From NCBI GenBank assembly GCA_038064195.1, contig JBBTTO010000002.1, forward strand, positions 402,387 to 466,386: a DNA stretch of 64,000 nt, in the 5' to 3' direction. The notes under the pieces are model-generated. The model was not told the DNA's origin. It was given only the letters and a program-made list of their open reading frames with translations, and ran no database searches. The DNA is from Patescibacteria group bacterium (GTDB lineage Bacteria > Patescibacteriota > Microgenomatia > Levybacterales > UBA12049). The position numbers and the translations under genes are program-made. Shown in pieces: positions 3,435 to 45,005 of the stretch. Position 1 is the first letter of the stretch; every line of letters starts with the position of its first letter.

Positions 3435-4841
3435 ATGGATAAGTTGACAAGAACATTGGTTGAACAAACGGTTGAGAAGGTTGGTGAGAAAGTGGTGCTT
3501 GAAGGGTGGGTAGATACCAAGCGCGATCACGGCAAACTGACTTTTATTGATCTCCGTGATCGAACAGGCAAAGTACAGTGTGTCGGTTTTCAAAAAATGG
3601 GAGAGCTGAGTGTCGAGTCTGTCGTCCGTGTGATCGGCATGGTCAAACTCAGACCTGAGAAAATGATCAATCCCGATCTGCCGACCGGAACAGTAGAGGT
3701 GGATGTAGAAAGTTATGAGATACTCAATAAAGCAATCGAGCTTCCCATCCAGCTTGATACCGACGGGCTCGAAATAGGAGAAGAGGTCAGACTGCGTTAT
3801 CGCTATATCGATCTGAGACGGGCACGTATGCAGCGCAATATCAGACTGCGCAGTGAGTTCATGCAGGCTCTGCGTCAGGTACTTTTGGCGAAAGATTTTG
3901 TCGAAATCGAAACGCCACTGCTTTCCAAAGCGACTATGGAGGGAGCACGGGATTTTATCGTCCCTTCCAGATTTCAGCCGGGCAAATTTTACGCACTTCC
4001 TCAGAGCCCTCAGCAGTACAAGCAGCTTTTGATGACTTCCGGATTTGAGAGATATTTCCAGTTCCCGCATTGTCTCAGAGATGAAGACCTCCGGGCCGAC
4101 AGGGGATTTGAATTTACCCAACTGGATTTGGAAATGAGTTTTGTAACCCGTGAGGACGTCATGCAGACAGTTGAGGATATGGTTAAAAAAGCTGTCAAGT
4201 CAGTCGGTGGAAAGTTACAAAAAGAGGAGTTCCCCGTGATCACCTATCAGGAGGCACTTGATAAATACGGAGCCGATAAATTCGACCTCAGAACCGAGGA
4301 GGAGAAGAAAGACGGGACGCTCGCTTTTGCCTGGGTCATAAATTTTCCGTTCTTTAAGAAAGTGGATAGTAAGGATGCAGCTGAGGTACGGGACGGCAAG
4401 AGCGGCTGGACATTTACCCATAATCCGTTCAGTATGCCGCTTCCGGAGCATGAAGAGTGGCTCTTGAAAGGGGAGAATATCGGGCAAATCATGACCACCC
4501 AATATGATCTCGTTTGTAACGGACTGGAGGCAGGTGGGGGTAGTATCAGAGCGCATCGGTCAGATCTGCTCAAGGCGACATATAAGATCATGGGCTATTC
4601 TGAAGAGCAGACACAGGAGAGTGTCGGTCATATGCTGGAGGCCTTTGAACTCGGTACGCCTCCGCATGGGGGGATCGCTTTGGGGCTGGATCGATATATC
4701 GCTCTTTTGACTGGGGAAAGTTCAATTAAAGAGGTCATAGCCTTCCCGATGACCTCGACCGGTCGAACAGCGATTATGGACGCTCCGTCTCCCGTTACCA
4801 AAGAGCAACTTGATGAACTCAGTCTTAAAGTGACCGAATAG
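3435..4841 (+). CDS. aspS: aspartate--tRNA ligase, short bacterial-type form lacking the GAD insertion
   Basis: N-terminal OB anticodon-binding fold; class II motifs FYALPQSPQQYKQLLM, RYFQFPHCLRDEDLRADRGFEFTQLDLEMSF (bacterial AspRS motif-2 signature), GGGSIRAHR. 468 aa. Confidence 0.85.
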   Translation: MDKLTRTLVEQTVEKVGEKVVLEGWVDTKRDHGKLTFIDLRDRTGKVQCVGFQKMGELSVESVVRVIGMVKLRPEKMINPDLPTGTVEVDVESYEILNKAIELPIQLDTDGLEIGEEVRLRYRYIDLRRARMQRNIRLRSEFMQALRQVLLAKDFVEIETPLLSKATMEGARDFIVPSRFQPGKFYALPQSPQQYKQLLMTSGFERYFQFPHCLRDEDLRADRGFEFTQLDLEMSFVTREDVMQTVEDMVKKAVKSVGGKLQKEEFPVITYQEALDKYGADKFDLRTEEEKKDGTLAFAWVINFPFFKKVDSKDAAEVRDGKSGWTFTHNPFSMPLPEHEEWLLKGENIGQIMTTQYDLVCNGLEAGGGSIRAHRSDLLKATYKIMGYSEEQTQESVGHMLEAFELGTPPHGGIALGLDRYIALLTGESSIKEVIAFPMTSTGRTAIMDAPSPVTKEQLDELSLKVTE

Positions 4842-15267: not shown

Positions 15268-15480
15268 TTTTTGTTCATACTTTTGAACCGCCAAAAGTAT
15301 GCAAAAGCTCGTGAGCTAGTGAGCGGTCACTAAATTTTCTCCTTCGTTAGTCGGGGGAATTCGGCCCCCTCATCCACACGCTGCGCTCGGTCTGGAATCC
15401 CCCTGACAACTCAGTCGAAAATTTTTAACGTGCTGCGCTCAGCGCTCACAATAAAGCACGCAAAGTGGCGAAATTAGGAA
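15268..15480 (+). ncRNA. intergenic structured element, copy R3 of a 4-member family (putative novel ncRNA)
   Basis: P1 hairpin CATACTTTT-gaaccgcc-AAAAGTATG, then CAAAAGC. P2 helix GTGAGC (15304-15309) pairs with GCTCAC (15443-15448). Long-range helix gTCGGGGGAATT (15343-15354) pairs with AATCCCCCTGAc. The 3' end GGCGAAATTAGGAAC resembles R1. Confidence 0.45.
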
Positions 15481-23099: not shown

Positions 23100-23280
23100 G
23101 TTTTTTCTGTACTTTTTCCCGCAAAAAGTACCAAAAGCTCTCGCCCTGTCTTCCTCAATGCAGAAAAATATGATTCGCTCATTAAAAGTTAGTGCTATTG
23201 ACTTGCAACTTTTACCCTTCAGGTCATTCTCTCATCATATTTTTCTAGGCTTTCGACGCGAACGGGCGATCATAGGAACC
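23100..23280 (+). ncRNA. intergenic structured element, copy R1 (putative novel ncRNA family)
   Basis: Starts 1 nt after the rarA stop. P1 GTACTTTTT-cccgc-AAAAAGTAC, then CAAAAGCTCTCG. P2 CGCCC (23143-23147) pairs with GGGCG (23264-23268). P3 TAAAAGT-variable loop-ACTTTTA. About 85 % identical to R2 in the conserved blocks, with compensatory changes. Confidence 0.5.
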
Positions 23281-23311
23281 TTATAAAAAAACGATTCTTT
23301 ATTAAGAGGAG

Positions 23312-29965: not shown

Positions 29966-29992
29966 ATCTTCTCGAATTTATTTAATTTAAGG

Positions 29993-30180
29993 TTTTTTCT
30001 GTACTTTTTTCCGCAAAAAGTACCAAAAGCTCTCGTCCAGTTTTGCTCAATGCAGAAAATGGCGACTCGTTCATTAAAAGTTACGGCCTCCACTGAGTTT
30101 CGCCTTTCAACTTTTACCCTTCGGGTCATTCATTCGCCACCATTTTCTAGGCTTTCGCGGCAAGTGGACGATCAGAGGAG
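29993..30180 (+). ncRNA. intergenic structured element, copy R2 (closest paralog of R1)
   Basis: Same P1 hairpin (loop tccgc) and CAAAAGCTCTCG. P2 CGTCCA (30036-30041) pairs with TGGACG (30164-30169), compensatory relative to R1. The P3 stem is conserved with a different, longer loop. The indel pattern breaks any common reading frame. Confidence 0.5.
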
Positions 30181-30469
30181 TTTATTATATGAAAAATGAT
30201 TTATTCAGCTGGTTTTCAAAAAACTCTTATATGTTTCTTACGGGATTTTAAGCAGGCTCTTATACATGAGTAATATGATCTAGGTCATAGAACTTGGTGG
30301 AATTTGGAGGTAAAGTAATATAACAGGTTAAGGAGTTTGTCCACCATGACTTACTTTTCGCCTTAGATCATTTGATCTGCGGCTCAAAGAGCGTTCAATT
30401 GGCGGACTTAAGACTCTCTAATTCTGATTTCTAGCAAAATCAGAAAGAGACTCTAAAGGAGGTGAGAAT

Positions 30470-35025: not shown

Positions 35026-35085
35026 CAGTGCATGTGATAGAGTGCTAATAATCAGGCAATTTCCACCAAGTTTTTGCCCCAACCT

Positions 35086-37473
35086 ATGGAAAAAGTAGTC
35101 CCAGTTATACCAATCAGAGACGGCATTATTTTCCCCAATACCGACTCAGTTCTTACATTTGGCAGACCCAAAAGTCTAGCGGCCCTTGAATCTTCATTTG
35201 AACACGAACGCATTGTTTGTTTTGTCCTGCAAAAAAGTTCCCGCGTGAACGATCCCGAGCCGGAAGACCTCTTTGAAGTCGGTACCCTTTCCCGCATCGA
35301 GCGCATGATCAGGGCAGATGGTGAGATCAATGCTCAGGTCCGTGGCTTGAACCGTGTCCGTATCCTCTCCTATGAGAAGCAGGATAACTTTTTTGTCGCG
35401 CGTGTTGTCGAGATTGAGGAAGAGTTGGATAACAATCCCGAGGTAACCGCTCTCTGCAACCACCTTACCAACGAATTCCGCCGCGCCATGAACTTCGGCA
35501 AGTCAGCCGATTTTTTAGTCTTTATGAACATCATGTCTGAGAACTCACCCTCTGAGCTATCAGATCTTGTTGCATCAGCCCTTGACCTTAAGCCTACCGA
35601 GCGCCAGGAGTTACTCGAAATGACCAATGTCAAAGAGCGCCTGCAAAAATTAGTTGATTTGCTTGCCAAAGAAATCCGTGTTTTAGAGCTTGAACGTCGT
35701 ATCGCCAGTAAGACCCAGGAGCGCTTTGAGAAAGGTGCTAGAGAGGCTATCCTCAGGGAACGCTTAAAGACGATTGAGAAAGAACTCGGTGAAGAAGAAG
35801 GCGGTAGCGAGATCAAAGAACTCATGCAAAAAGTCAAAGAAGCCAAGATGCCTGAGGATGTTGAGGATAAAGCCAAAAAAGAAGTCAAAAAGCTGGCTCA
35901 AATGAACCAGTTCAATCCTGAGGCCGGATATATCCGTAACTATATAGACTGGCTCATCTCACTCCCCTGGAGTGTTGAAAGTAAGACAGATCTTAATATC
36001 AAAGCCGCTGAAAAAATCCTCAACGAAGACCACTACGGTCTGCCGAAAGTTAAAGAGCGTATTCTCGAGTACTTAGCTGTGCAGAAATTAGCCGGCAAGA
36101 TGAAGTCTCCGATTCTTTGTTTTGTCGGACCACCCGGAGTGGGTAAGACATCCCTTGGTAAATCCATCGCCAGGTCTTTAGGCCGTAAGTTCATCCGTGT
36201 CTCCTTAGGCGGGATCAGAGATGAGGCAGAAATCCGCGGTCATCGCAGGACCTATGTCGGCGCACTCCCCGGACGCATTATTCAGGGGATTAAAGACTCC
36301 GGTACGCGCAATCCCGTCTTTATGTTAGACGAGATCGACAAAGTCGGTGCAGATTTCCGCGGTGATCCGTCCAGTGCCTTACTTGAAGCTTTAGATCCAG
36401 AACAGAATACTGATTTTTCAGATCATTATTTGGAAGTTCCTTTCGATCTGTCTAACGTCATGTTCATCACCACCGCCAATGTTTTGGATACCATTCCGCC
36501 GGCTCTGCGTGACCGTCTGGAGATCATTCAATTTGCAGGCTATACCCATGATGAGAAATTCCACATCGTTGAGCAGTTTTTGCTCAAAAAGCAGATGGAA
36601 ATGCACGGTCTTAAAGCTAAGCAGGTTACTCTAACACCTGAGGCGATCAACTTTATTATCAATCATTACACCCGTGAAGCAGGCGTCCGTAACTTAGAGC
36701 GACGTATCGCAACTATCTTTAGGAAAGTCGCCCGTAAGGTAGCTGAAGGGAAGCGGGTCAAGATCACGATTACTGAGAAGGACATTACCAAATACTTAGG
36801 GCCTGTGAAGCACAGTTCCACTCAGGTTGAGAAGCAGGATCAGATCGGACAGTCGACAGGTTTGGCCTGGACTGAGGCAGGAGGCGAGATACTCTTTATC
36901 GAAGTCGCGCTTATGCCGGGCAAAGGTCAGCTGACTCTGACCGGGCAGTTAGGCGATGTGATGAAAGAGTCCTGTCAGGCCGCACTCTCCTACATCAGAG
37001 CCCGTGCGGATTATTTCGGCATCGCGGATAAAGTTTTTCAAAAGACAGATATCCATGTCCACGTCCCTGAGGGTGCAGTTCCCAAAGACGGCCCTTCAGC
37101 AGGTCTGGCCATAACGACGGCTATCGTCTCAGCTCTTACTCACATTCCGGTGAAAAGGACTGTCGGTATGACAGGTGAGGTTACCCTTCGCGGACGCGCA
37201 CTCGAGATCGGCGGAGTCAAAGAAAAAGTTATCGCCGCTCATCGCGCCGGACTTAAAACAATTTTACTTCCTAAAGATAACAAAAAGGATCTTGAAGAAG
37301 TACCTGAGGAAGTTCTTAAAGATGTCGAGTTCAAATTCGTTTCACATATGGATGACGTCCTGGAGCTGGCACTCACTAAGCCTTTGAAAGTAAAGCACAC
37401 CAAAGAAGATATCGAGATGGGCTATATCCCGACACGTCAGGTCGTATCCCATCGCCCCTACAAAGCAGACTGA
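35086..37473 (+). CDS. lon: ATP-dependent protease Lon
   Basis: Lon N-domain, AAA+ Walker [10 protein letters not shown], Ser-Lys dyad region [15 protein letters not shown]...K. The track start is TTG at 35074; the first ATG is 35086. Confidence 0.9.
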
Positions 37474-37658: not shown

Positions 37659-38330
37659 ATGGATGAGTCAGCTGCCCGACCAGAAGAACAAATTGACGGC
37701 CGTACTGTTTCAGGCCCCAAACATCCCCATGACTCCCACGGTCATTTCATCCACAAATTCCCAACCCCGCCTAAGCCGGGATCACAGCCCAGCCTCACCG
37801 AAAAACTTTTCCCAACCCATGTCTCGGTAGACCATAAAGTTACCCAGGACGCTTTGTTAGACGTTCACATCGGCAATCCACTCCGTCGGATCACTCAGCT
37901 TCTGGAGGAGATAAAGCGCCAAAAAGCCTTTTCTTTCACCCTGAAAGGCTCCCTCGGTATCATGGGAGTGGCTTTGGCGTTATCGGTCTTTGGTTTTTTT
38001 GGTAGTTCCAAAGTCCTCTGTGACAAAGGCACGCAGACGTTATCCGGCACGATCAAATCTCTCTCAGTCATGGATCGCCCCGCTCAGATTCCCGTTCTTT
38101 CTACAGTTATTAACTCTGCCAATTATTTACTGTTTCACAAAGGCTGGCCGACAGGGACCAAGCGCTATGTTCTCGTTGATCTGAAAGACGCCTCGACGAT
38201 CGGATTGCAGGCCAGCGAATCAGACCTGAATTCATTCCTCAATCAAGTCGTCTATATCACAGGTGGCTATGATAGTTGCTCACGAGTATTGAAAGTCACC
38301 CAGCCCCACGCCATTGAAGAACTCCACTAA
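37659..38330 (+). CDS. hypothetical protein; possible small secreted protein starting at an internal Met
   Basis: The N-terminal 100 aa are low-complexity; a signal-like segment MGVALALSVFGFFGSS begins near 37962. Confidence 0.35.
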   Translation: MDESAARPEEQIDGRTVSGPKHPHDSHGHFIHKFPTPPKPGSQPSLTEKLFPTHVSVDHKVTQDALLDVHIGNPLRRITQLLEEIKRQKAFSFTLKGSLGIMGVALALSVFGFFGSSKVLCDKGTQTLSGTIKSLSVMDRPAQIPVLSTVINSANYLLFHKGWPTGTKRYVLVDLKDASTIGLQASESDLNSFLNQVVYITGGYDSCSRVLKVTQPHAIEELH

Positions 38331-38459
38331 GTCTCATAGTTTTTGATTTTAATTCCAGCTTTGCTATACTACTCTTACTGTTTTTGATCCGTGGGGTAGA
38401 TTCTCACGGGGAGAACTCAGTGATCTTATTTGCAGTAGAGCCAGCATTGGAGGAAGGCC

Positions 38460-38810
38460 ATGAAGATGATTGCCGACAGAGCGCTTTTTGAGGAGGTTCT
38501 CAGACGTGCTAGCTCGTTTCGACTCAGACCGGACTTAGCGATGATTCGGATGACGCGTCACCCGCTCACTCCGAGACACTTGTCTGGTTACGGCTACGAG
38601 ATCATCGCCGCTGCCAATGAAGCGACCTTGCGCGGCCTTTTGGTCGGGCAGCCGCTTAGTCTCACGGGGGAGACTCTTGAATTCTTCCCTGTCGATACGG
38701 TTCTGATAATCGAATGTGACCTGCGGTTCCCCTGGATGGGGAGGACACTGCAGACGTATGCGACGAAAGTGAACGGCTTTTTGCCGTACCACATCGTTAT
38801 GTCAGATTGA
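38460..38810 (+). CDS. hypothetical protein (high-GC island B)
   Basis: 116 aa, no recognised motif, GC above 50 %. Confidence 0.3.
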   Translation: MKMIADRALFEEVLRRASSFRLRPDLAMIRMTRHPLTPRHLSGYGYEIIAAANEATLRGLLVGQPLSLTGETLEFFPVDTVLIIECDLRFPWMGRTLQTYATKVNGFLPYHIVMSD

Positions 38811-40159
38811 CTCTATTTGCGAGTGCGCCCCGATGGACATCGGGGCGCTTTCAGTTTTCATCTCATCATTCAGGAGGTTTCATTCCCCATACTAATATCA
38901 AGTCACCTTATAATTTATTATCCGCTATCTTTGTGTATAATGCGCATATGTCAGCTGAGGTAGACCGTCGTATCGCACTTAAGCTTATGGCCATGAGCCC
39001 TATAGCACTTACTCATCCTGAAGCCGTATCTGCATTAGCTTCCCCGTCAGCACCTGTAGTCGAGGCTTCCGCTACTGGTCTTATGCCCGTTGATTCCGAA
39101 GGTTTTTTATCCGAGGTTGATAGGAGAGCTGAAGGAGAACCTGATGCTTTAGAAATGCTCAATAGGATCAATCGGTTGCACGGAGAGATGGGAACACAAA
39201 TGGTAGAAAAAGACGGTGTTACGAGCTACGCTGAAGTACTTCCGTTAGGAGATCATAATGCAGAAGTAGTGAGTGAGACATCAATGAGGGCAGATGGATC
39301 CACTTATCAAGTAGGGCGGATATCATATATACCTGATGAAGAGGGTGATTTATCTTATACGGAGTTCAATTTTGATAGCTCAGGGAGGATTTGGGTGGGG
39401 ACTCCGGCGCTGCGTCTGGGTGACATAGATCTCCAGAGTGAGGAGGGCGTTCAATATATGATTGAGGTTATGGATTGGCATGAAAAAGCTCGTCAATTCA
39501 GTCCTTCGACTGTCTGGAAAGGTGTAGACGAAGCAGTGACACTTCTTGTTGATCCGGCTGCTCAGAATACTTTTATTGAGGATCACATCGAACCTATGGT
39601 CGGCTGGGATAAAATTGATGCGATTAACACGCGCTTTTTCCCCGAGGATTATGAATTTGAGATTACAGAGCAAGGTTCTGAGCTGCTAGCATACTCTGAC
39701 CCAGAAGATGAGCGGGAACTTGATGAGGCAATGGCTTCCTATCAGCGGGGAGAGTTTACCCATCCTACAGCTTCAGATATCAGAAATCGACTTACAACTA
39801 TTGAGGAAGAAAACAACAGGGCAGCTGAGGCCATGGAAAAATTTTGGCGAGGAGAGGGTTCCGTCTACAGTGCTTCAGATTTAGAGGAGCTAATCGCCCT
39901 GAAAAAAGCAAAAGAATCCCGCCTCTGGAATGGTGGTTTTTCCCGCGTCCAGTTGTTCCATGCCTTTGCTGCATTAGGTGGGGAGGTCAAGCGGATTTTT
40001 CAAGGCGGTACCTATAAGGCTTTGCCTGATGAGCTCAAGCAGCTTTTTGCTGTTGCTGCTCTTCCGCCTCAAAGAGAAGAGGAAGCTATTGCTTCTGAAA
40101 GGGATGAGCTTATCCCTATTTCCTCCGGTTTTTCTTTCTATACCCCCGAGGGTGAATAG
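38807..40159 (+). CDS. hypothetical acidic protein (about 400 aa from the internal Met at 38948)
   Basis: The N-terminus from the internal Met, DRRIALKLMAMSPIALTHPEAVSALA, could be a Tat-like signal; no known domain recognised. Confidence 0.4.
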   Translation: MTLFASAPRWTSGRFQFSSHHSGGFIPHTNIKSPYNLLSAIFVYNAHMSAEVDRRIALKLMAMSPIALTHPEAVSALASPSAPVVEASATGLMPVDSEGFLSEVDRRAEGEPDALEMLNRINRLHGEMGTQMVEKDGVTSYAEVLPLGDHNAEVVSETSMRADGSTYQVGRISYIPDEEGDLSYTEFNFDSSGRIWVGTPALRLGDIDLQSEEGVQYMIEVMDWHEKARQFSPSTVWKGVDEAVTLLVDPAAQNTFIEDHIEPMVGWDKIDAINTRFFPEDYEFEITEQGSELLAYSDPEDERELDEAMASYQRGEFTHPTASDIRNRLTTIEEENNRAAEAMEKFWRGEGSVYSASDLEELIALKKAKESRLWNGGFSRVQLFHAFAALGGEVKRIFQGGTYKALPDELKQLFAVAALPPQREEEAIASERDELIPISSGFSFYTPEGE

Positions 40160-40288
40160 GTTATTTCCCCCACGAAAAAGGGCACGCCAGTACTGACGAG
40201 GGTACTGGAGTGCAAAGACGCGCATGTGCGTCAGTGTCTCCAAAGAGACCCTTTTTCGTCAGGCTACTTTCGTGCCCGAATTACCTTT

Positions 40289-40813
40289 CTAGCTGAAGAA
40301 GCCGCTTTCCGGCGTCCGATCTGCGTTGATCTGAGCGTCCGCATGGATGGGAGCGATCGCGATCCACCCTAGACCTTCGTCATTTTCCCCTTCAACTCCA
40401 CTGAATCCGCCGGCGAGACCGTCGAGCCAGACTCCTCCGGAGTAGGCGACGTCGCCTGGTTGGATGGTGAGGGAGTACTGGTCGATGATCATGCTTGTTT
40501 CCATTTGCTCCCGCCCGGACAGGATGGTCTTGGCGCGAGCGATGTACTGGTAGTCAGGCTTCCATAGTCCGTCCCCGTTGTATTTACGATCCACGAGGAT
40601 GAGGCCGTCGAAATGCTCGTTGAACAGATCGTCGTCCTTGGCGATCTGTTCAATCGTCACGCCTTCCGGCAGGGGTCGAAACCCCCGCGTAAAGTCCATG
40701 ATGACCAAATGGCCTGCGTTTTTATTCGCAAAGCCGGTCCTGGATAGGCGACGCAGTGCATCGCCGACGATGTCTCCTGCAACGACGAGTAGGTTAGGAT
40801 CACTGATGATCAT
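40289..40813 (-). CDS. hypothetical protein (high GC, about 57 %)
   Basis: 174 aa, no recognised motif; the codon usage contrasts with the core genes. Confidence 0.4.
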   Translation of the reverse strand: MIISDPNLLVVAGDIVGDALRRLSRTGFANKNAGHLVIMDFTRGFRPLPEGVTIEQIAKDDDLFNEHFDGLILVDRKYNGDGLWKPDYQYIARAKTILSGREQMETSMIIDQYSLTIQPGDVAYSGGVWLDGLAGGFSGVEGENDEGLGWIAIAPIHADAQINADRTPESGFFS

Positions 40814-41019
40814 GAAATCCTCCGTTCAACTTTAGCTTCCTCACAATTGAGTGAAGCCGCGAGAGAAAGATTGTGATCTTTCGCTCACTGGTTCACTCAA
40901 TATGTTTTTAGATAGAAAAGTGCTTTTAAAAGAGAACCTAAGCACGTAGCTTATATTCTCATCTAAAACACGCTCATTATAGCTAAAGAGGGGAGTGAAA
41001 TCAAACTATGGGCCAATCC

Positions 41020-41061
41020 TAATTCTTAATTCTTAATTCTTAATTCTGTATACTGTATACT
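41020..41061 (+). repeat. (TAATTCT)4 immediately followed by (GTATACT)2, heptanucleotide tandem repeats
   Basis: ccTAATTCTTAATTCTTAATTCTTAATTCTGTATACTGTATACTctcctt-ATG, ending 6 nt before the start of the 41068 gene. Confidence 0.85.
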
Positions 41062-41067
41062 CTCCTT

Positions 41068-41661
41068 ATGCTTCCTGAGTATTTTATATTTATCGGTACA
41101 GGTATTAATGCTATTGGCGCTATCAGTTACCTCATCGATACAGTTCGCGGTCGCGTCCAACCTAACCGTGTTACTTGGTTTCTCTGGGCCTTAGCCCCTC
41201 TTGTGACTGTGGCGGCGCAGCTTGATCAGGGAGTTGGGTTGCCTGCTCTTTTGACATTCAGTGTAGGTTTTTTGCCTGCACTTATTGTTATTGCTTCATT
41301 TTTTAATAAAAAAGCAGTCTGGAAGATTACTCGTTTTGATATCTTTTGCGGGGTGCTTTCCCTAGTAGGCCTTATCCTCTGGCAGATCACAAAAGTAGGA
41401 AATATTGCTATTTTACTAAGCATAGTCGCTGATCTTTTTGCCGGTATTCCGACATTTCGTAAAGCATATTCGCATCCGGATTCTGAGAGTTTTAGGGCTT
41501 TTTTCCTGGGGGCTATTGGGGCTGTCCTTGTCATACTTACTATTACCACGTGGACATTTGCTGTGGCTGCTTTTTCAGTTTATTTCTTCCTGAGCAATTC
41601 ATTGATCGCCTTCCTCGTTAAGTCCCGCATCGGCGCTCGATCCAGACATCAAATACAATAG
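41068..41661 (+). CDS. polytopic inner-membrane protein (5-6 TM), unknown function
   Basis: Hydrophobic helices throughout; no motif recognised. Confidence 0.5.
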   Translation: MLPEYFIFIGTGINAIGAISYLIDTVRGRVQPNRVTWFLWALAPLVTVAAQLDQGVGLPALLTFSVGFLPALIVIASFFNKKAVWKITRFDIFCGVLSLVGLILWQITKVGNIAILLSIVADLFAGIPTFRKAYSHPDSESFRAFFLGAIGAVLVILTITTWTFAVAAFSVYFFLSNSLIAFLVKSRIGARSRHQIQ

Positions 41662-41812
41662 TTCTAGATTGTCCTCCTTGCCCCATTTATATCAAAATAA
41701 AAACCTTAGATCGCAAACTGAGCGCAACGGGTTAAACTTTATCAAATGAAGGTCTTTTTCCAAAGAGTTAGGGGCGGCCTGGCCTTTCGGCGGGCCGCCC
41801 CTTGGTACACAT

Positions 41813-43117
41813 TTAGACGATGACAGCGCCTAACTGGATGCAGTCCTTGGCGCCATGGACAGCTTTGTCCCGACGCGCAGTGACGATGATATCAGCCAGC
41901 TGACGTTGTACATACTGGACGGTCACGCGCATGTACCAATCCTCGGTTGTCTGCAGAATAGGAGCGCTGTTGCTCCCATCTTCAAACCAGGAAAATGTTT
42001 GAGGTTGGTTAATGATCTCTTCCTGGAGGATCCAGTTCATTTGTGATTTGCAGGCATCAGAGAGATCTGACTCAAACGACGGATCGCTTGAGAAGATCGT
42101 CCCTTTCATCCCGCTGGAGATCGACTCCTTGAGGACGTATTGCTTCATGTCGAGACGCTGGACATTCCGCACCATGTTGTAGCGCGGCATGGTAGCTTCT
42201 CGTGGAAGGTTTTCCCACGTGACAGCTTGCGTTCCGACGAGGTACGTCTCTGGGATGTACTGCCTGACGCGTTGGAGTGAGTGGGCACGGATGAACGACT
42301 GCAGTAACCCCTCAAGGATGGGATCCTTACTGTCGTTTCGAAGTATCGCCAGCACTCCTTTGGCCCCGAGAAAGGGTTTGGGAGGGATGACGAAGACGAC
42401 CTTGCCTTTTTTGTACGAGTCGATGATCGTCTCGTACAATGCAGTCCGGTGGTAGAGGAACGGCAGATCGAGGAACAGTCCTTCCTTCAGAAGTGCTGTT
42501 TCCGCTTCCATCTCTGAAAAGACCTGACAGTGGAGTCCGAGTTTGGCGAACTCTGCCTGCGCGATTTCAAATTCTGGCAGGTAGAACCGTTCCTGGTCCG
42601 CGTAGAAGATCTTGACCGTGTCAAAGCCCAGCTTGCGTACGTAGTCGGTGATCAGTTTGACAGCACCGGGTAGTGCCTTTGCCTCAGGGTAGAGACTTTG
42701 GCGGAACAGCCGGCCGAGGGTTGCGTACCCTAGGCCATGTTTGTTGTGGCCGTCGATCTCAGCGATGCGGAATTCTCCCCACTCATTGACCATCAGGTCG
42801 ACTTTGAGAAGTTGGGGGAGCTGTGTCCGGTTCTGTCCTTGTAGATCGTGGTAGGCTTTGGGGACACCTGATGAAAAAATCTGCCGCAATTCTGTCCATA
42901 CGCCTCGGTAATTGAGCTCACGGTCAAAAGCGATAGTCGCTAGATGCGAGAGTCCTTGCAGGCAATCGGTGATGGCGTATCCCAGCTGAGTGAGTTCTTG
43001 CTGTTGCGCGGTCGTGATCCGATAGACGCTGGGGGACAGATGAAAAGCGTGCGTTGCACGTCTCTGTCCTTCCCAGATACGGGTATCTTCTGTGACTTTG
43101 AGTAGCGTGTCATACAT
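41813..43117 (-). CDS. glutathionylspermidine-synthase-like ATP-grasp amidoligase (YgiC/YjfC family)
   Basis: [32 protein letters not shown] parallels the YgiC region [47 protein letters not shown] parallels [20 protein letters not shown] (ATP-grasp strand-loop). Recalled from memory, not searched. Confidence 0.5.
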   Translation of the reverse strand: [434 protein letters not shown]

Positions 43118-43271
43118 GACCTCTTCTCCTTGTTTGTAAATGTGCCAGTAGTCCCGACATTTTCGGGGCTACTTTCAATAGTTCTTACGCATGACCGTAA
43201 GGACCATAGAGAGTACCCCCAACGTGAGTTGTGGTACCAGAAAGTAACGAAATATTGGTGAGCTAGAAATT

Positions 43272-43688
43272 TCATAAGTTTTTTATAATTGGGAGCAGTT
43301 CAGTCATAGTGGTGATCGTAAAATCTGCTTTGATATTGATAGAATCATCAGCAAATTTGCCCTGTTTTAGGTGGATCGTGATACAGCCAAGCTGATTGCC
43401 GATAGCTATTTCATCGACCAATCGATCGCCGACGACTATATTTTTGTCATTTTTATCGATGAGTGAGGCAAAAGCTTCGATTGTTTTTTTATCAGTAAGT
43501 AAAATTTGTTCAAAGAATTCCTCCAGTCCCATATCTTGGATAAGACTTTCACGTTTTCCCTCTTTACGTGTGATCAGGATCAGGCGGTTTTGTTTCTTTA
43601 GCTTTTTCAACAAAGGAATGACACCCGGGAACAATTTTTTGTTATCAGGATCAAAAAGTGTACGATTAAAATCAAATATAATAGTCAT
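43272..43688 (-). CDS. HAD-superfamily hydrolase-like small protein
   Basis: Motif I IIFDFNRTL (second Asp replaced by Asn); motif IV VGDRLVDEIAIGNQLG. Confidence 0.55.
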   Translation of the reverse strand: MTIIFDFNRTLFDPDNKKLFPGVIPLLKKLKKQNRLILITRKEGKRESLIQDMGLEEFFEQILLTDKKTIEAFASLIDKNDKNIVVGDRLVDEIAIGNQLGCITIHLKQGKFADDSINIKADFTITTMTELLPIIKNL

Positions 43689-43928
43689 AAATACAAAAAA
43701 CCGGCTTCCTTTCAGAACCGGTTAGTGAAAAAAAGTTTATTATTTTTTAAATCACGCTAAAGACACCGGCTCTATCCCCGCGAACCAGTGATAAAAAGAA
43801 TTTATTTTTAAATGAGACTTCATCCCTTGATGTTAGCATACCTGAGTTCGTGAGTCAATTTTTAGAAGATGGTGTGCTTTTTAGTCTTGCGACCAAGGCA
43901 GCATGAATGCTGGCACACCCACCCCGGT

Positions 43929-44348
43929 TCATTTGAGTTCGATCTTTCGATAAAAAATCCCCCCATCTCGTTCTGGGACGAGATAGAGCCCGATAAATCC
44001 CCCTCGCTCAGGATATGCCGCCATAAAGGCTTTTGTGTCCTTCATGGAGATCATGTACTCACCGACGATGACGATCTGAGATTCGGTTGCCGATGCCAAG
44101 TGGCCGATAACCGACCACAGGCTTGGTTTCCAGATATCGTCAGGGTAGTCACGGATGAGCTGGATGATCCTGAAAGCTGCTCCAGGATACCAGAGTCCGA
44201 GTTCTCCCAAGAGTTCCATGACGTCCGTTTCTTCAAGCAGCTCAAAGCCGACGTTGAGGATTCGCATGAATCCAAGTCGGATCCGTGCTGCTTCCGCTTG
44301 GCTTGGATTCTCCAAACCTTTTTCTGGACCGTCCACACAGACCTCCAC
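43929..44348 (-). CDS. hypothetical protein (high GC)
   Basis: 139 aa. The overlapping plus ORF 43869-44414 reads as Cys/Trp/His/Arg-rich noise, so the minus frame is preferred. Confidence 0.35.
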   Translation of the reverse strand: MEVCVDGPEKGLENPSQAEAARIRLGFMRILNVGFELLEETDVMELLGELGLWYPGAAFRIIQLIRDYPDDIWKPSLWSVIGHLASATESQIVIVGEYMISMKDTKAFMAAYPERGGFIGLYLVPERDGGIFYRKIELK

Positions 44349-44469
44349 TCACGACGTTACTCAAATGACGTGGGTGTAGTATACTCCAAATTCCCTTCGA
44401 ATCAACTCTCCTAATCCATGAGCACATTTTATTTCAAGTAAGGTTCTAAAGATCGCGGATTGAACGCAT

Positions 44470-44660
44470 ATATATTCTTCTAAAAACGTGCTTTTTAGAA
44501 CAAAGCGCGTAAATAAATTGTGAGTGAGTTGTCAGGGGGAATCCGGTCCTTTAGTGGCCGAAGGGGGAGGACAATCCTCCCGACAACGAACGAACAATTT
44601 TAGTGCGACTTCGCAAAGCACGCAGTTTTGTACACTTTTGCTGCCACGCCCTATGAAATA
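44470..44660 (+). ncRNA. intergenic structured element, copy R4 (R3-like)
   Basis: P1 TTCTAAAAA-cgtgc-TTTTTAGAA (44478-44500), then CAAAGCGCG; GTGAGTGAG; GAGTTGTCAGGGGGAATCCGG (reverse complement of the R3 motif GGAATCCCCCTGACAACTC); AAAGCACGCA shared with R3. Boundaries approximate. Confidence 0.35.
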
Positions 44661-44747: not shown

Positions 44748-45005
44748 TTATGCAGCCATAGGTGCTTCATTTGTGTCGTCAGTGTTACCTGCGTCACTTG
44801 TGCCGGCAGAAGCGCGGGCTACATTTTTTGCAAAAGGGCCTTTATCGCCACTTCCCATTTCAAATGTAACTTTGTCGCCTACTTGAATATCATCCCAAGT
44901 CCATCCTTGCAGATCATTGGAATGGAAAAATAGATCTTTTTCTTCGCCATCACGACTAATGAATCCGAATCCTTTTTCTGTCTTTACTTTAATTATACCT
45001 TGCAT
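44748..45005 (-). CDS. cold-shock protein (CspA family) with an acidic C-terminal tail
   Basis: MQGIIKVKTEKGFGFISRDGEEKDLFFH, the RNP1-type motif. Confidence 0.8.
   Translation of the reverse strand: MQGIIKVKTEKGFGFISRDGEEKDLFFHSNDLQGWTWDDIQVGDKVTFEMGSGDKGPFAKNVARASAGTSDAGNTDDTNEAPMAA

Follow-up and report, generated by a model that had tools for sequence, protein, structure and literature searches.

A candidate leader-peptide attenuator between a cap-less HAD gene and a permuted ATP-grasp ligase gene in Patescibacteria

Here we have analysed a 64-kb stretch of the genome of a Patescibacteria group bacterium (contig JBBTTO010000002.1 of assembly GCA_038064195.1), referred to below as the window, whose positions are used for all open reading frame (ORF) coordinates. 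We describe a minus-strand operon at 41813-43688 which, with a probability that we put at roughly 60 %, consists of a cap-less HAD gene, a leader peptide with its attenuator RNA, and a gene for a ligase of permuted ATP-grasp fold. This HAD-leader-ligase operon is specific to Patescibacteria and combines known kinds of element in a new form. The first-pass annotation, which had read the six kilobases around the operon as a high-GC island, overlooked the linkage of the HAD gene to the ligase gene as well as the leader peptide and attenuator that separate them; its observation is partly confirmed and its interpretation partly supported by what follows. Quite tentatively, and as a proposal that we hold to be possible rather than probable, the ligase-phosphatase pair could be an enzymatic response, not recognised before, by which amino-acid-auxotrophic Patescibacteria meet a shortage of Trp, His or Tyr. 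It would perhaps start from a phosphorylated precursor to salvage or make a compound linked to an aromatic residue or His, and its switch would be a leader-peptide attenuator on which translation re-initiates at the upstream gene's stop codon.

The two enzyme genes of the operon form a conserved pair, in which the 138-aa HAD gene (43272-43688, minus strand) comes first and the gene of the 434-aa ligase (41813-43117, minus strand), a member of an unclassified Patescibacteria family, comes second. In tblastn searches with the proteins of the region, the HAD gene lies directly upstream of the ligase gene and on the same strand at 45 of 49 loci, and an independent metagenome scan places it upstream of the ligase gene in 53 of 54 testable loci. 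When 542 neighbouring ORFs were clustered, only the ligase and the HAD proved widely shared, the next cluster being present in seven loci, and no third conserved gene was found across the neighbourhoods. Specifically, the membrane protein and the 174- and 139-aa proteins encoded nearby have no counterpart among the 49 tblastn loci outside a sister genome, L007/L008, whose ligase is 83 % identical, apart from one further weak match to the membrane protein in L034; the 116-, 223- and 450-aa proteins were found at none of the 49. Over some 100 Patescibacteria loci in all, the HAD is the sole conserved neighbour of the ligase, and the genes downstream of the ligase vary between loci. One locus, L029 (3362-3815), has a ligase without an upstream HAD, so the HAD can be lost or moved while the ligase stays; a weak, chance-level match to the leader-RNA model described below (22.9 bits, E 0.09, 3682-3789) lies just upstream of this ligase.

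Between the HAD stop codon and the ligase ATG lies a structured leader RNA of 154 nt (43118-43271, minus strand). The spacer measures 139-171 nt in most loci with this long type of leader, and up to 239 nt in a few, with a second, short-type group spanning ~79-134 nt in most. On our first reading the spacer appeared to hold no conserved ORF, a conclusion that was reversed once the start codon was recognised within the 3' end of the HAD gene; it was the short ORFs seen in a distant branch of the ligase family that led us to re-examine it. In the window the leader ATG (43275-43273) overlaps the HAD stop TGA (43274-43272) as ATGA at 43275-43272, and opens a minus-strand ORF (42940-43275) whose product begins MKFLAHQYFVTFWYHN. 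At 27/27 long-type loci an ORF in the same frame starts from an ATG that precedes the HAD stop by 4-11 nt and has the pattern M[KN][NK]-x5-8-[YF]-W-[HY]-[WHFMR]-[YHF]-[YHF]; its TGG codon is invariant, with synonymous variation in its codons for His (CAT/CAC), Tyr (TAT/TAC) and Phe (TTT/TTC). The ATG itself is supplied by a '[YH]E' tail at the HAD C-terminus (codons yAT GAA), which occurs only in loci with a long-type leader. Most of the independent metagenome loci repeat the pattern, with the ATG 4-20 nt ahead of the HAD stop over both sets of loci, and several short-type leaders begin with a TTG that overlaps the TGA and read M-x-x-I-W-W-Q-S. In the window the putative regulatory codons are TTC TGG TAC CAC (F-W-Y-H; 43231-43242, minus strand), and they overlap segment 1 of the RNA described below; codon clusters of this kind have a background rate of 3.4e-4 per 6-aa window, or ~5 % per spacer.

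The leader ORF is 18-34 codons long in most loci and exceeds 100 codons, with no early stop, in six, including the window, where the frame runs for 111 codons and into the ligase gene. Past the codon cluster, 1-nt insertions and deletions shift the frame of the peptide and RNA segment 2 stays conserved, as a leader peptide predicts and unlike the core peptide of a ribosomally synthesized and post-translationally modified peptide (RiPP). The alignments thus show a conserved, predicted short ORF in the spacer that carries a cluster of Trp/His/Tyr(/Phe) codons on segment 1. The aromatic motif conserved around an invariant Trp, together with the six ORFs that lack an early stop, would also suit a TnaC-like nascent-chain arrest peptide that responds not to tRNA charging but to some free small molecule inside the ribosome tunnel; TnaC itself depends on a critical Trp. 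We regard such an arrest sensor as quite unlikely, because the order and identity of the cluster vary freely between leaders (YWHWYH, FWYWYHH, YYWHFF, NYYHH, IWWQS), which the counting of codons fits better.

For the codon-counting attenuator that we favour, the RNA of the spacer offers four predicted pairing segments, all on the minus strand: segment 1 (43238-43228), segment 2 (43223-43204), segment 3 (43181-43163) and segment 4 (43158-43148), with a P2 hairpin (43203-43196 / 43189-43182) between segments 2 and 3, and with a conserved box ahead of the ribosome-binding site (pre-RBS box, 43144-43132) and the ligase Shine-Dalgarno sequence AAGGAG (43131-43126) after segment 4. A covariance model, R1, built from 12 leaders matches the window at 43113-43246 (minus strand; 30.4 bits, E 0.002) and has no other match in the rest of the 64 kb. 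Across loci it gives one plus-strand match each, always in the HAD-ligase spacer, with loci outside its training set scoring 41-72 bits; its other matches are one of chance level on the plus strand (L012, E 0.06) and minus-strand echoes. Helix statistics were taken from a 23-sequence alignment, with slid partners and 500 shuffles as controls. Helices 1:2 (P1), P2 and 3:4 (P4) reach 88 % pairing, which falls to 53 % with a slid partner, and show compensatory changes in 18 of 25 pairs. Helix 2:3, which is incompatible with both P1 and P4 and to which the alignment was not fitted, is 93 % paired, against 47 % when slid, with 9 of 16 pairs compensatory; for neither set did any of the 500 shuffles attain what was observed. 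For the RNA of the window, both folds come out at the same predicted energy, -43.4 kcal/mol. Covariation shows, in short, that the spacer RNA has two mutually exclusive predicted folds, namely 1:2 with 3:4, or 2:3. The second leader type has a covarying hairpin (14/22 pairs) and a common pre-RBS box, GUUCnUUnACAAC.

Strong covariation and alternative helices could equally belong to a metabolite- or protein-binding, riboswitch-like leader, in which the aromatic 'ORF' would be a by-product of conserved RNA and not translated as a sensor. Such a leader would also account for the missing Shine-Dalgarno sequence ahead of the leader ATG, for the short leaders without an aromatic ORF and for a 5' block, UUGGCA, that is conserved as sequence. 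We nevertheless consider it unlikely, in view of the in-frame ATG at all 27 long-type loci, of cluster variation that is either synonymous or within the aromatic/His class, and of a codon cluster of this kind on segment 1 of an unrelated leader in the distant branch. Furthermore, Rfam 15 holds no family for the leader RNA, the search returning only chance matches to microRNA hairpins (E 0.15-10).

Other identities were tried for parts of the spacer and rejected. A known riboswitch or T-box family was dropped for want of an Rfam match; the resemblance of UGGUACC to a T-box is superficial, and a Stem I would not fit into so short a leader. On inspection of the aligned leaders, the idea that the conserved TTGGCA block belongs to a sigma-54 or sigma-70 promoter was likewise discarded, as neither the spacing nor the -12/-10 elements fit, and a consensus promoter scan gave no minus-strand site within the spacer.

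Ribosome-mediated attenuation, the reading that we prefer to a riboswitch, can be compared most directly with known systems in the distant branch, whose leaders read MSKVSFAQNYYHHTTS, MKNISFSSWHYYQSA and MKTQVTNLYWHHYF... (YYHH/WHYY type). There the regulatory codons lie within segment 1, the 2:3 duplex reaches -23.2 kcal/mol, and a hairpin followed by seven U stands ~15 nt before the ligase AUG in L059 and L060, with a similar hairpin and seven U in L061. As predicted from its sequence, this leader is of the architecture of the trp, phe and aroR attenuators, for which trpL, pheL and pheST of Escherichia coli and aroR of Corynebacterium glutamicum provide precedent (PMC11802643). Common to our leaders and these precedents are the short ORF, the regulatory codons on segment 1 and the competing pairings 1:2, 2:3 and 3:4, to which the distant branch adds a terminator directly before the regulated gene. 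In addition, the I-W-W-Q-S of the short-type leaders is close to E. coli trpL, which reads ...G-W-W-R-T-S. In contrast to trp-type attenuators, the HAD-ligase leader lies inside an operon, with its start overlapping the upstream stop; it mixes Trp, His, Tyr and Phe codons; it would control a ligase in amino-acid auxotrophs rather than a biosynthetic operon; and in the window it lacks both a U-tract and an early stop. In the literature we found no earlier description of leader-peptide attenuation in Patescibacteria, nor of an attenuator governing an enzyme that belongs neither to classical biosynthesis nor to tRNA charging, and nothing relevant on the ligase family, on attenuators or riboswitches in Patescibacteria, or on attenuators or riboswitches for the HAD-ligase locus.

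The enzyme that the attenuator would control has no match in Pfam, NCBIfam, PADLOC, PHROGs, PDB sequence or PDB profile searches, the Pfam and NCBIfam results being read down to E <= 0.1-1. Its 291 close homologues (~420 aa, 53-85 % identity) are all unnamed or 'hypothetical', and wherever the name of a homologue's source identifies an organism, it is one of the Patescibacteria (Paceibacterota, Nomurabacteria, Parcubacteria). A scan of one genome per species gave 41 ligase loci, also in Moranii-, Magasanik-, Kerfeld- and Doudnabacteria, with a few bins bearing other taxon labels that could not be verified; the family profile, run against 1.84 billion representatives, finds no more than 259 clusters at 50 % identity. 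The confident AlphaFold2 model (predicted local distance difference test score, pLDDT, 87.6; predicted template-modelling score, pTM, 0.88) supports a circularly permuted ATP-grasp fold, because it matches glutathione synthetases, YgiC/YjfC and GspS, as well as trypanothione synthetase, in Foldseek searches (E 2e-13 to 6e-6, template-modelling (TM) scores ~0.5-0.6). Eukaryotic-type glutathione synthetases lead (human 2hgs/8fbz, potato 5oes, yeast 1m0w; E 2e-13 to 1e-10, TM 0.52-0.60), yet share only 9-14 % identity with the ligase, which has no match to Pfam GSH_synth, and nothing seen here points to glutathione metabolism. The GSP_synth family (PF03738) follows, with proteins of similar size and E-values of 2e-11 to 2e-9 (YgiC/YjfC 2e-11 and 2e-9, with 7uk8/7uka at 2e-11 and 7uk6 also matched; GspS 2io8), and then Mfla_0391 (3n6x; E 1e-7), an example of CP_ATPgrasp_2; the classical ATP-grasp Ddl reaches only E ~1e-3.

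The earlier assignment of the ligase to the GspS/YgiC family therefore holds for the fold, at the level of the superfamily, and fails for family membership, as no Pfam or NCBIfam model recognises the protein, an outcome that the annotation itself had named as refuting. Indeed, there is no significant sequence or profile similarity to YgiC, YjfC or GspS: hhalign comparisons of the ligase family with YgiC alone or with an eight-sequence YgiC-family alignment built from plasmid records give non-significant probabilities of 2.6-4.5 % (2.6 %, E 0.018, for the eight-sequence alignment). The order of motif blocks in this non-significant alignment is nevertheless collinear with that of YgiC (R/K-x-D ... 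E-x-N/D, then P-x-W/F-K...(S/G)-x-K), placing K105-V-D107...E120-I-D122 of the ligase opposite R-x-D...E-x-N and PPKPFLGAKG opposite EPxWKxxxSNK. Invariant in the family alignment are K105, D107, E120, D122, K247, K253, K330, S334-G339 and Q365, and their match to the ATP-Mg site rests on the same non-significant alignment. The ligase family further differs from GSP_synth proteins in its glycine-rich loop, KESISSGMKG, in its restriction to Patescibacteria, and in having a HAD or a His_Phos_1 protein as partner instead of a YgiB/YjfL-type membrane protein. Three distant members (P0225, P0263, P0202) reach 17-23 bits against CP_ATPgrasp_2 (PF14403), below the cut-off of 32 (best E 5e-5), and the window ligase itself does not match. 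The partners typical of CP_ATPgrasp_2, alpha-E and transglutaminase, are absent from the ligase neighbourhoods. The ligase is a separate, new family inside the permuted ATP-grasp superfamily and not a GSP_synth/YgiC member. Its fold and invariant charged residues suggest that it would form an amide bond from a carboxylate and an amine via an acyl-phosphate, which is the most likely chemistry because its structural relatives act in this way.

Two minor points concern the ligase sequence. A 14-residue insertion, NLPREATMPRYNMV, at about residues 302-315 (approximately 42172-42213), is absent from 34/34 aligned homologues and is the only disordered part of the model, overlapping its lowest-confidence stretch (residues 313-323, pLDDT < 50); either a loop specific to the lineage or an artefact of assembly could account for it. 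The N-terminal extensions of P0229 and P0234 were considered as fused HAD domains, an idea that was rejected as Pfam finds no family, HAD included, in either.

Two papers describe YgiC and YjfC as enzymes that ligate peptides to spermidine and that do not produce glutathionylspermidine (PMC12568646, citing Pederick 2023; PMC12506659, citing Sui 2012). With a small ORF adjoining an ATP-grasp gene, and with graspetide clusters known from the Candidate Phyla Radiation (PMC8939145), such peptide-spermidine ligation (Pederick et al. 2023, as cited in PMC12568646) raises the alternative that the short ORF encodes a precursor or substrate peptide which the ATP-grasp enzyme modifies, in the manner of a RiPP or by peptide-amine ligation. 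We think this very unlikely. The peptide tails lack a conserved core, shift frame and range from 18 to >100 codons; the enzyme has the permuted fold of glutathione synthetase and GspS and not the RimK-like fold of graspetide enzymes; and covariation of the RNA reaches beyond the ORF, with a true terminator in the distant branch.

Returning to the attenuator-controlled operon, its first product, which the first-pass annotation had called HAD-like, indeed has Pfam and NCBIfam HAD matches (Pfam PGP_phosphatase, 23.3 against a cut-off of 20.4). The AlphaFold2 model (pLDDT 94.1) has the Rossmannoid core of the HAD-IA phosphatases Bacillus subtilis YfnB and human NANP/HDHD4 (Foldseek E 4e-7 to 1e-6, TM 0.7-0.8), and since it aligns with only this core of ~130 residues, the ~65-residue C1 cap is missing; a capped relative, P0279, has a ~65-residue insert and a DIDDT motif. 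The Asp nucleophile of motif I is kept in all aligned HAD members, and motifs II (S/T), III (K) and IV (GDxxxD) are intact. The standard motif I, DxDx[TV] with its general acid/base at D+2, was not found: the window reads FDFNRT, with Asn instead of Asp at D+2, as do 37 of the 38 other aligned operon-linked members (FD[FY]NRT), L045 reading FDWMRT. In HAD enzymology, loss of the D+2 general acid leads to slower aspartyl-phosphate turnover or to restriction to good leaving groups.

The distant branch offers a different partner. In L060 and L061 there is no HAD, and a 175-178-aa His_Phos_1 protein is encoded directly after the ligase (7-nt gap or 8-nt overlap), in the gene order ligase, His_Phos_1, histidyl-tRNA synthetase (HisRS), EamA transporter (L060 6001-9156, L061 1155-4409). 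With two unrelated phosphatase folds paired with the ligase, we infer a phosphatase-type step in its pathway, in which the HAD here, and His_Phos_1 in the distant branch, would act. HisRS follows His_Phos_1 in L060 and L061 and adjoins the ligase in L001, L025 and L026, thereby recurring at five loci in three lineages, which is suggestive, though not conclusive, of a link to histidine or tRNA charging. In L001 the HisRS gene overlaps the 3' end of the ligase gene. The codon signal likewise points to a role that would be tied to the supply of an aromatic amino acid or histidine.

We propose that ribosomes ending translation of the HAD would re-initiate at the overlapping leader ATG. Where charged tRNA-Trp, -His or -Tyr is scarce, the ribosome would stall on segment 1 and mask it, segment 2 would pair with segment 3, helix 3:4 could not form, and the ligase would be expressed; where charged tRNAs are plentiful, the ribosome would run through segment 2 and helix 3:4 would form. 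The output in the distant branch would be termination of transcription at the 3:4 terminator. In the window, read-through ribosomes may occlude the ligase start, or the start may be sequestered; either is likelier than termination, because the leader frame crosses the ligase Shine-Dalgarno sequence and AUG and no U-tract follows the 3:4 hairpin (none past 43148), although some long-type members do have U-runs. The predicted sense is the same in both cases, with starvation switching the ligase on.

Several observations weigh against this reading. In the window the leader ORF has no early stop and the 3:4 hairpin no U-tract, so that the classical model of termination cannot be carried over to it without modification. 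The leader ATG has no Shine-Dalgarno sequence ahead of it; an aromatic ORF is missing from several short spacers (43-115 nt); and the leaders are related sequences, in which part of the TGGCAY conservation could reflect constraint on the RNA. The alignment, being derived from the covariance model, leans towards helices 1:2, P2 and 3:4, and a further candidate helix, P3 (AAGGAAC:GTTCTTT), was rejected as not significant, with no support beyond chance. As for the enzymes, the HAD gene sits upstream of the attenuator and is not itself under its control; with Asn at D+2 the usual general acid is lost, and the partner may therefore be something other than an ordinary phosphatase; and with a non-significant profile match between the ligase and YgiC, the equivalence of their catalytic residues is only putative.

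Patescibacteria make up a very large and mostly uncultured share of bacterial diversity, with tiny genomes and many conserved proteins of no known function. Here, a ligase family without a Pfam or NCBIfam model gains a fold, a phosphatase-type partner (HAD or His_Phos_1) and a putative Trp/His/Tyr cue, and the value of the work lies in attaching such a physiological cue to an uncharacterised family. The analysis also indicates that classical ribosome-mediated attenuation occurs in these reduced genomes and that an overlap of stop and start codons can place it within an operon. It shows, too, that a local rise in GC is not necessarily a sign of horizontal transfer, as it can come with the gene family itself.

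This last point bears on the wider region, which is flanked, as the first-pass annotation had said, by lon on the left (35074-37473, plus strand) and the cold-shock CSD gene (csp) on the right (44748-45005, minus strand), and whose ORFs were all found where it had placed them. That annotation saw there a horizontally acquired high-GC island with a YgiBC/YjfKLMC-like system of amidoligase, membrane protein and hypothetical proteins, an account that we now find highly improbable. Several genes do have G+C at third codon positions (GC3) some 2-3 standard deviations above the window mean, the ligase fold does resemble YgiC, and the gene order is common to one sister genome. GC is 44.3 % for the whole window, with a mean gene GC of 44.6 % (standard deviation 4.4) and a mean GC3 of 46 % (standard deviation 8). 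Raised GC/GC3 values are found for the ligase gene (53.3/63.4), the 174-aa gene (56.8/68.6, at 69 % the highest GC3 in the window), the 116-aa gene (54.1/65.0) and the 139-aa gene (51.4/56.4); these alternate with genes whose values are not raised, namely the HAD gene (36.0/36.7), the membrane-protein gene (43.8/38.4) and the 450-aa gene (46.5/38.8). The supposed six-kilobase high-GC island is a mosaic, not a coherent island. Compared with its flanks, the ligase gene has on average 4.9 points more GC and is the richer in 34 of 42 other loci, whereas the HAD gene lies 4.9 points below its flanks and is poorer in 36 of 38. The high GC of the ligase gene is therefore a trait of its family, native to Patescibacteria, in AT-rich genomes and not a mark of recent import. 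Homologue searches disclosed no donor lineage for the ligase or the 174-aa gene, the 174-aa protein having only two detectable homologues, both in close kin, and no family match.

The other elements of the island account fare no better. Beyond the sister genome only the HAD is conserved next to the ligase, not the membrane protein or the hypothetical proteins, and no neighbour matches DUF350, DUF1190 or DUF2491, so that the analogy with ygiBC and yjfKLMC is unsupported. The ligase and membrane-protein genes, described earlier as divergent, are convergent, lying tail to tail and 151 nt apart, so they cannot share a repeat-bearing promoter region. The region is also not bounded by simple sequence repeats, the sole one within 38400-44420 sitting inside it.

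As to the remaining genes, ORFs of 223 aa (37659-38330, plus strand, one hydrophobic segment) and 116 aa (38460-38810, plus strand) are followed by one of 450 or 403 aa (38807/38948-40159, plus strand), whose reported acidity is borne out (isoelectric point 4.4-4.6), with the RR-type signal attributed to it doubtful, as no hydrophobic segment reaches threshold. Next comes the acidic 174-aa protein (40289-40813, minus strand), and then the membrane protein (41068-41661, plus strand), a 197-aa product with at least five hydrophobic segments that was rightly described as polytopic. To the right of the operon lies an overlapping ORF pair (43869-44414), of which the minus-strand 139-aa ORF (43929-44348) is the real gene, because its substitutions relative to the sister genome fall 18/12/33 by codon position.

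Upstream of the HAD gene, a consensus scan gave a sigma-70-like match, TTGACT-17-TAACAT with an upstream TG (43830-43858, minus strand), ~140 nt before the HAD ATG. Against reading it as a promoter, matches of this kind are no more numerous in the region than in shuffled sequence, and it is a candidate operon promoter only, on weak evidence. Downstream of this promoter-like site (43858-43830), a minus-strand hairpin, AACCGGTTCTGAAAGGAAGCCGGTT, followed by TTTTTG (43697-43725), ends ~8 nt ahead of the HAD ATG; judged by its letters, it has the look of a terminator or of a second point of control.

The heptamer repeats reported before the membrane-protein gene are present as (TAATTCT)x4 and (CTGTATA)x2.3 at 41020-41061, just ahead of its ATG, with no Shine-Dalgarno sequence visible before that ATG. 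(TAATTCT)n has four copies here and in L058 (12587-12614), and three in the sister species L007/L008 (L007 9209-9229); the site may be a contingency (phase-variable) locus. L058 is a contig of 721,594 bp (ENA ERZ1286166 contig_3270) that is nearly identical to the window, with the same gene order and a HAD 99 % identical, and its length implies a genome of ~0.72 Mb; lon, the ligase gene, sod and other genes are split into fragments in it, as uncorrected long-read insertions and deletions would give.

Two further repeats occur in the window. A ~200-nt direct repeat (23100-23306 / 29992-30208) is 88 % and 72 % identical in its two parts, and its copies lie 6.9 kb apart. The R element noted at the right side of the region is confirmed at 44487-44640 (plus strand), with a second, inverted copy at 15300-15460 (minus strand): the two copies of this ~130-150-nt element are 78 % identical, have no Rfam match, and both contain a long hairpin, GTTGTCAGGGGGA...TCCCCCGACAAC, whose arms differ between copies by compensatory changes; a small RNA is one candidate identity for the element, a repeated regulatory element another.

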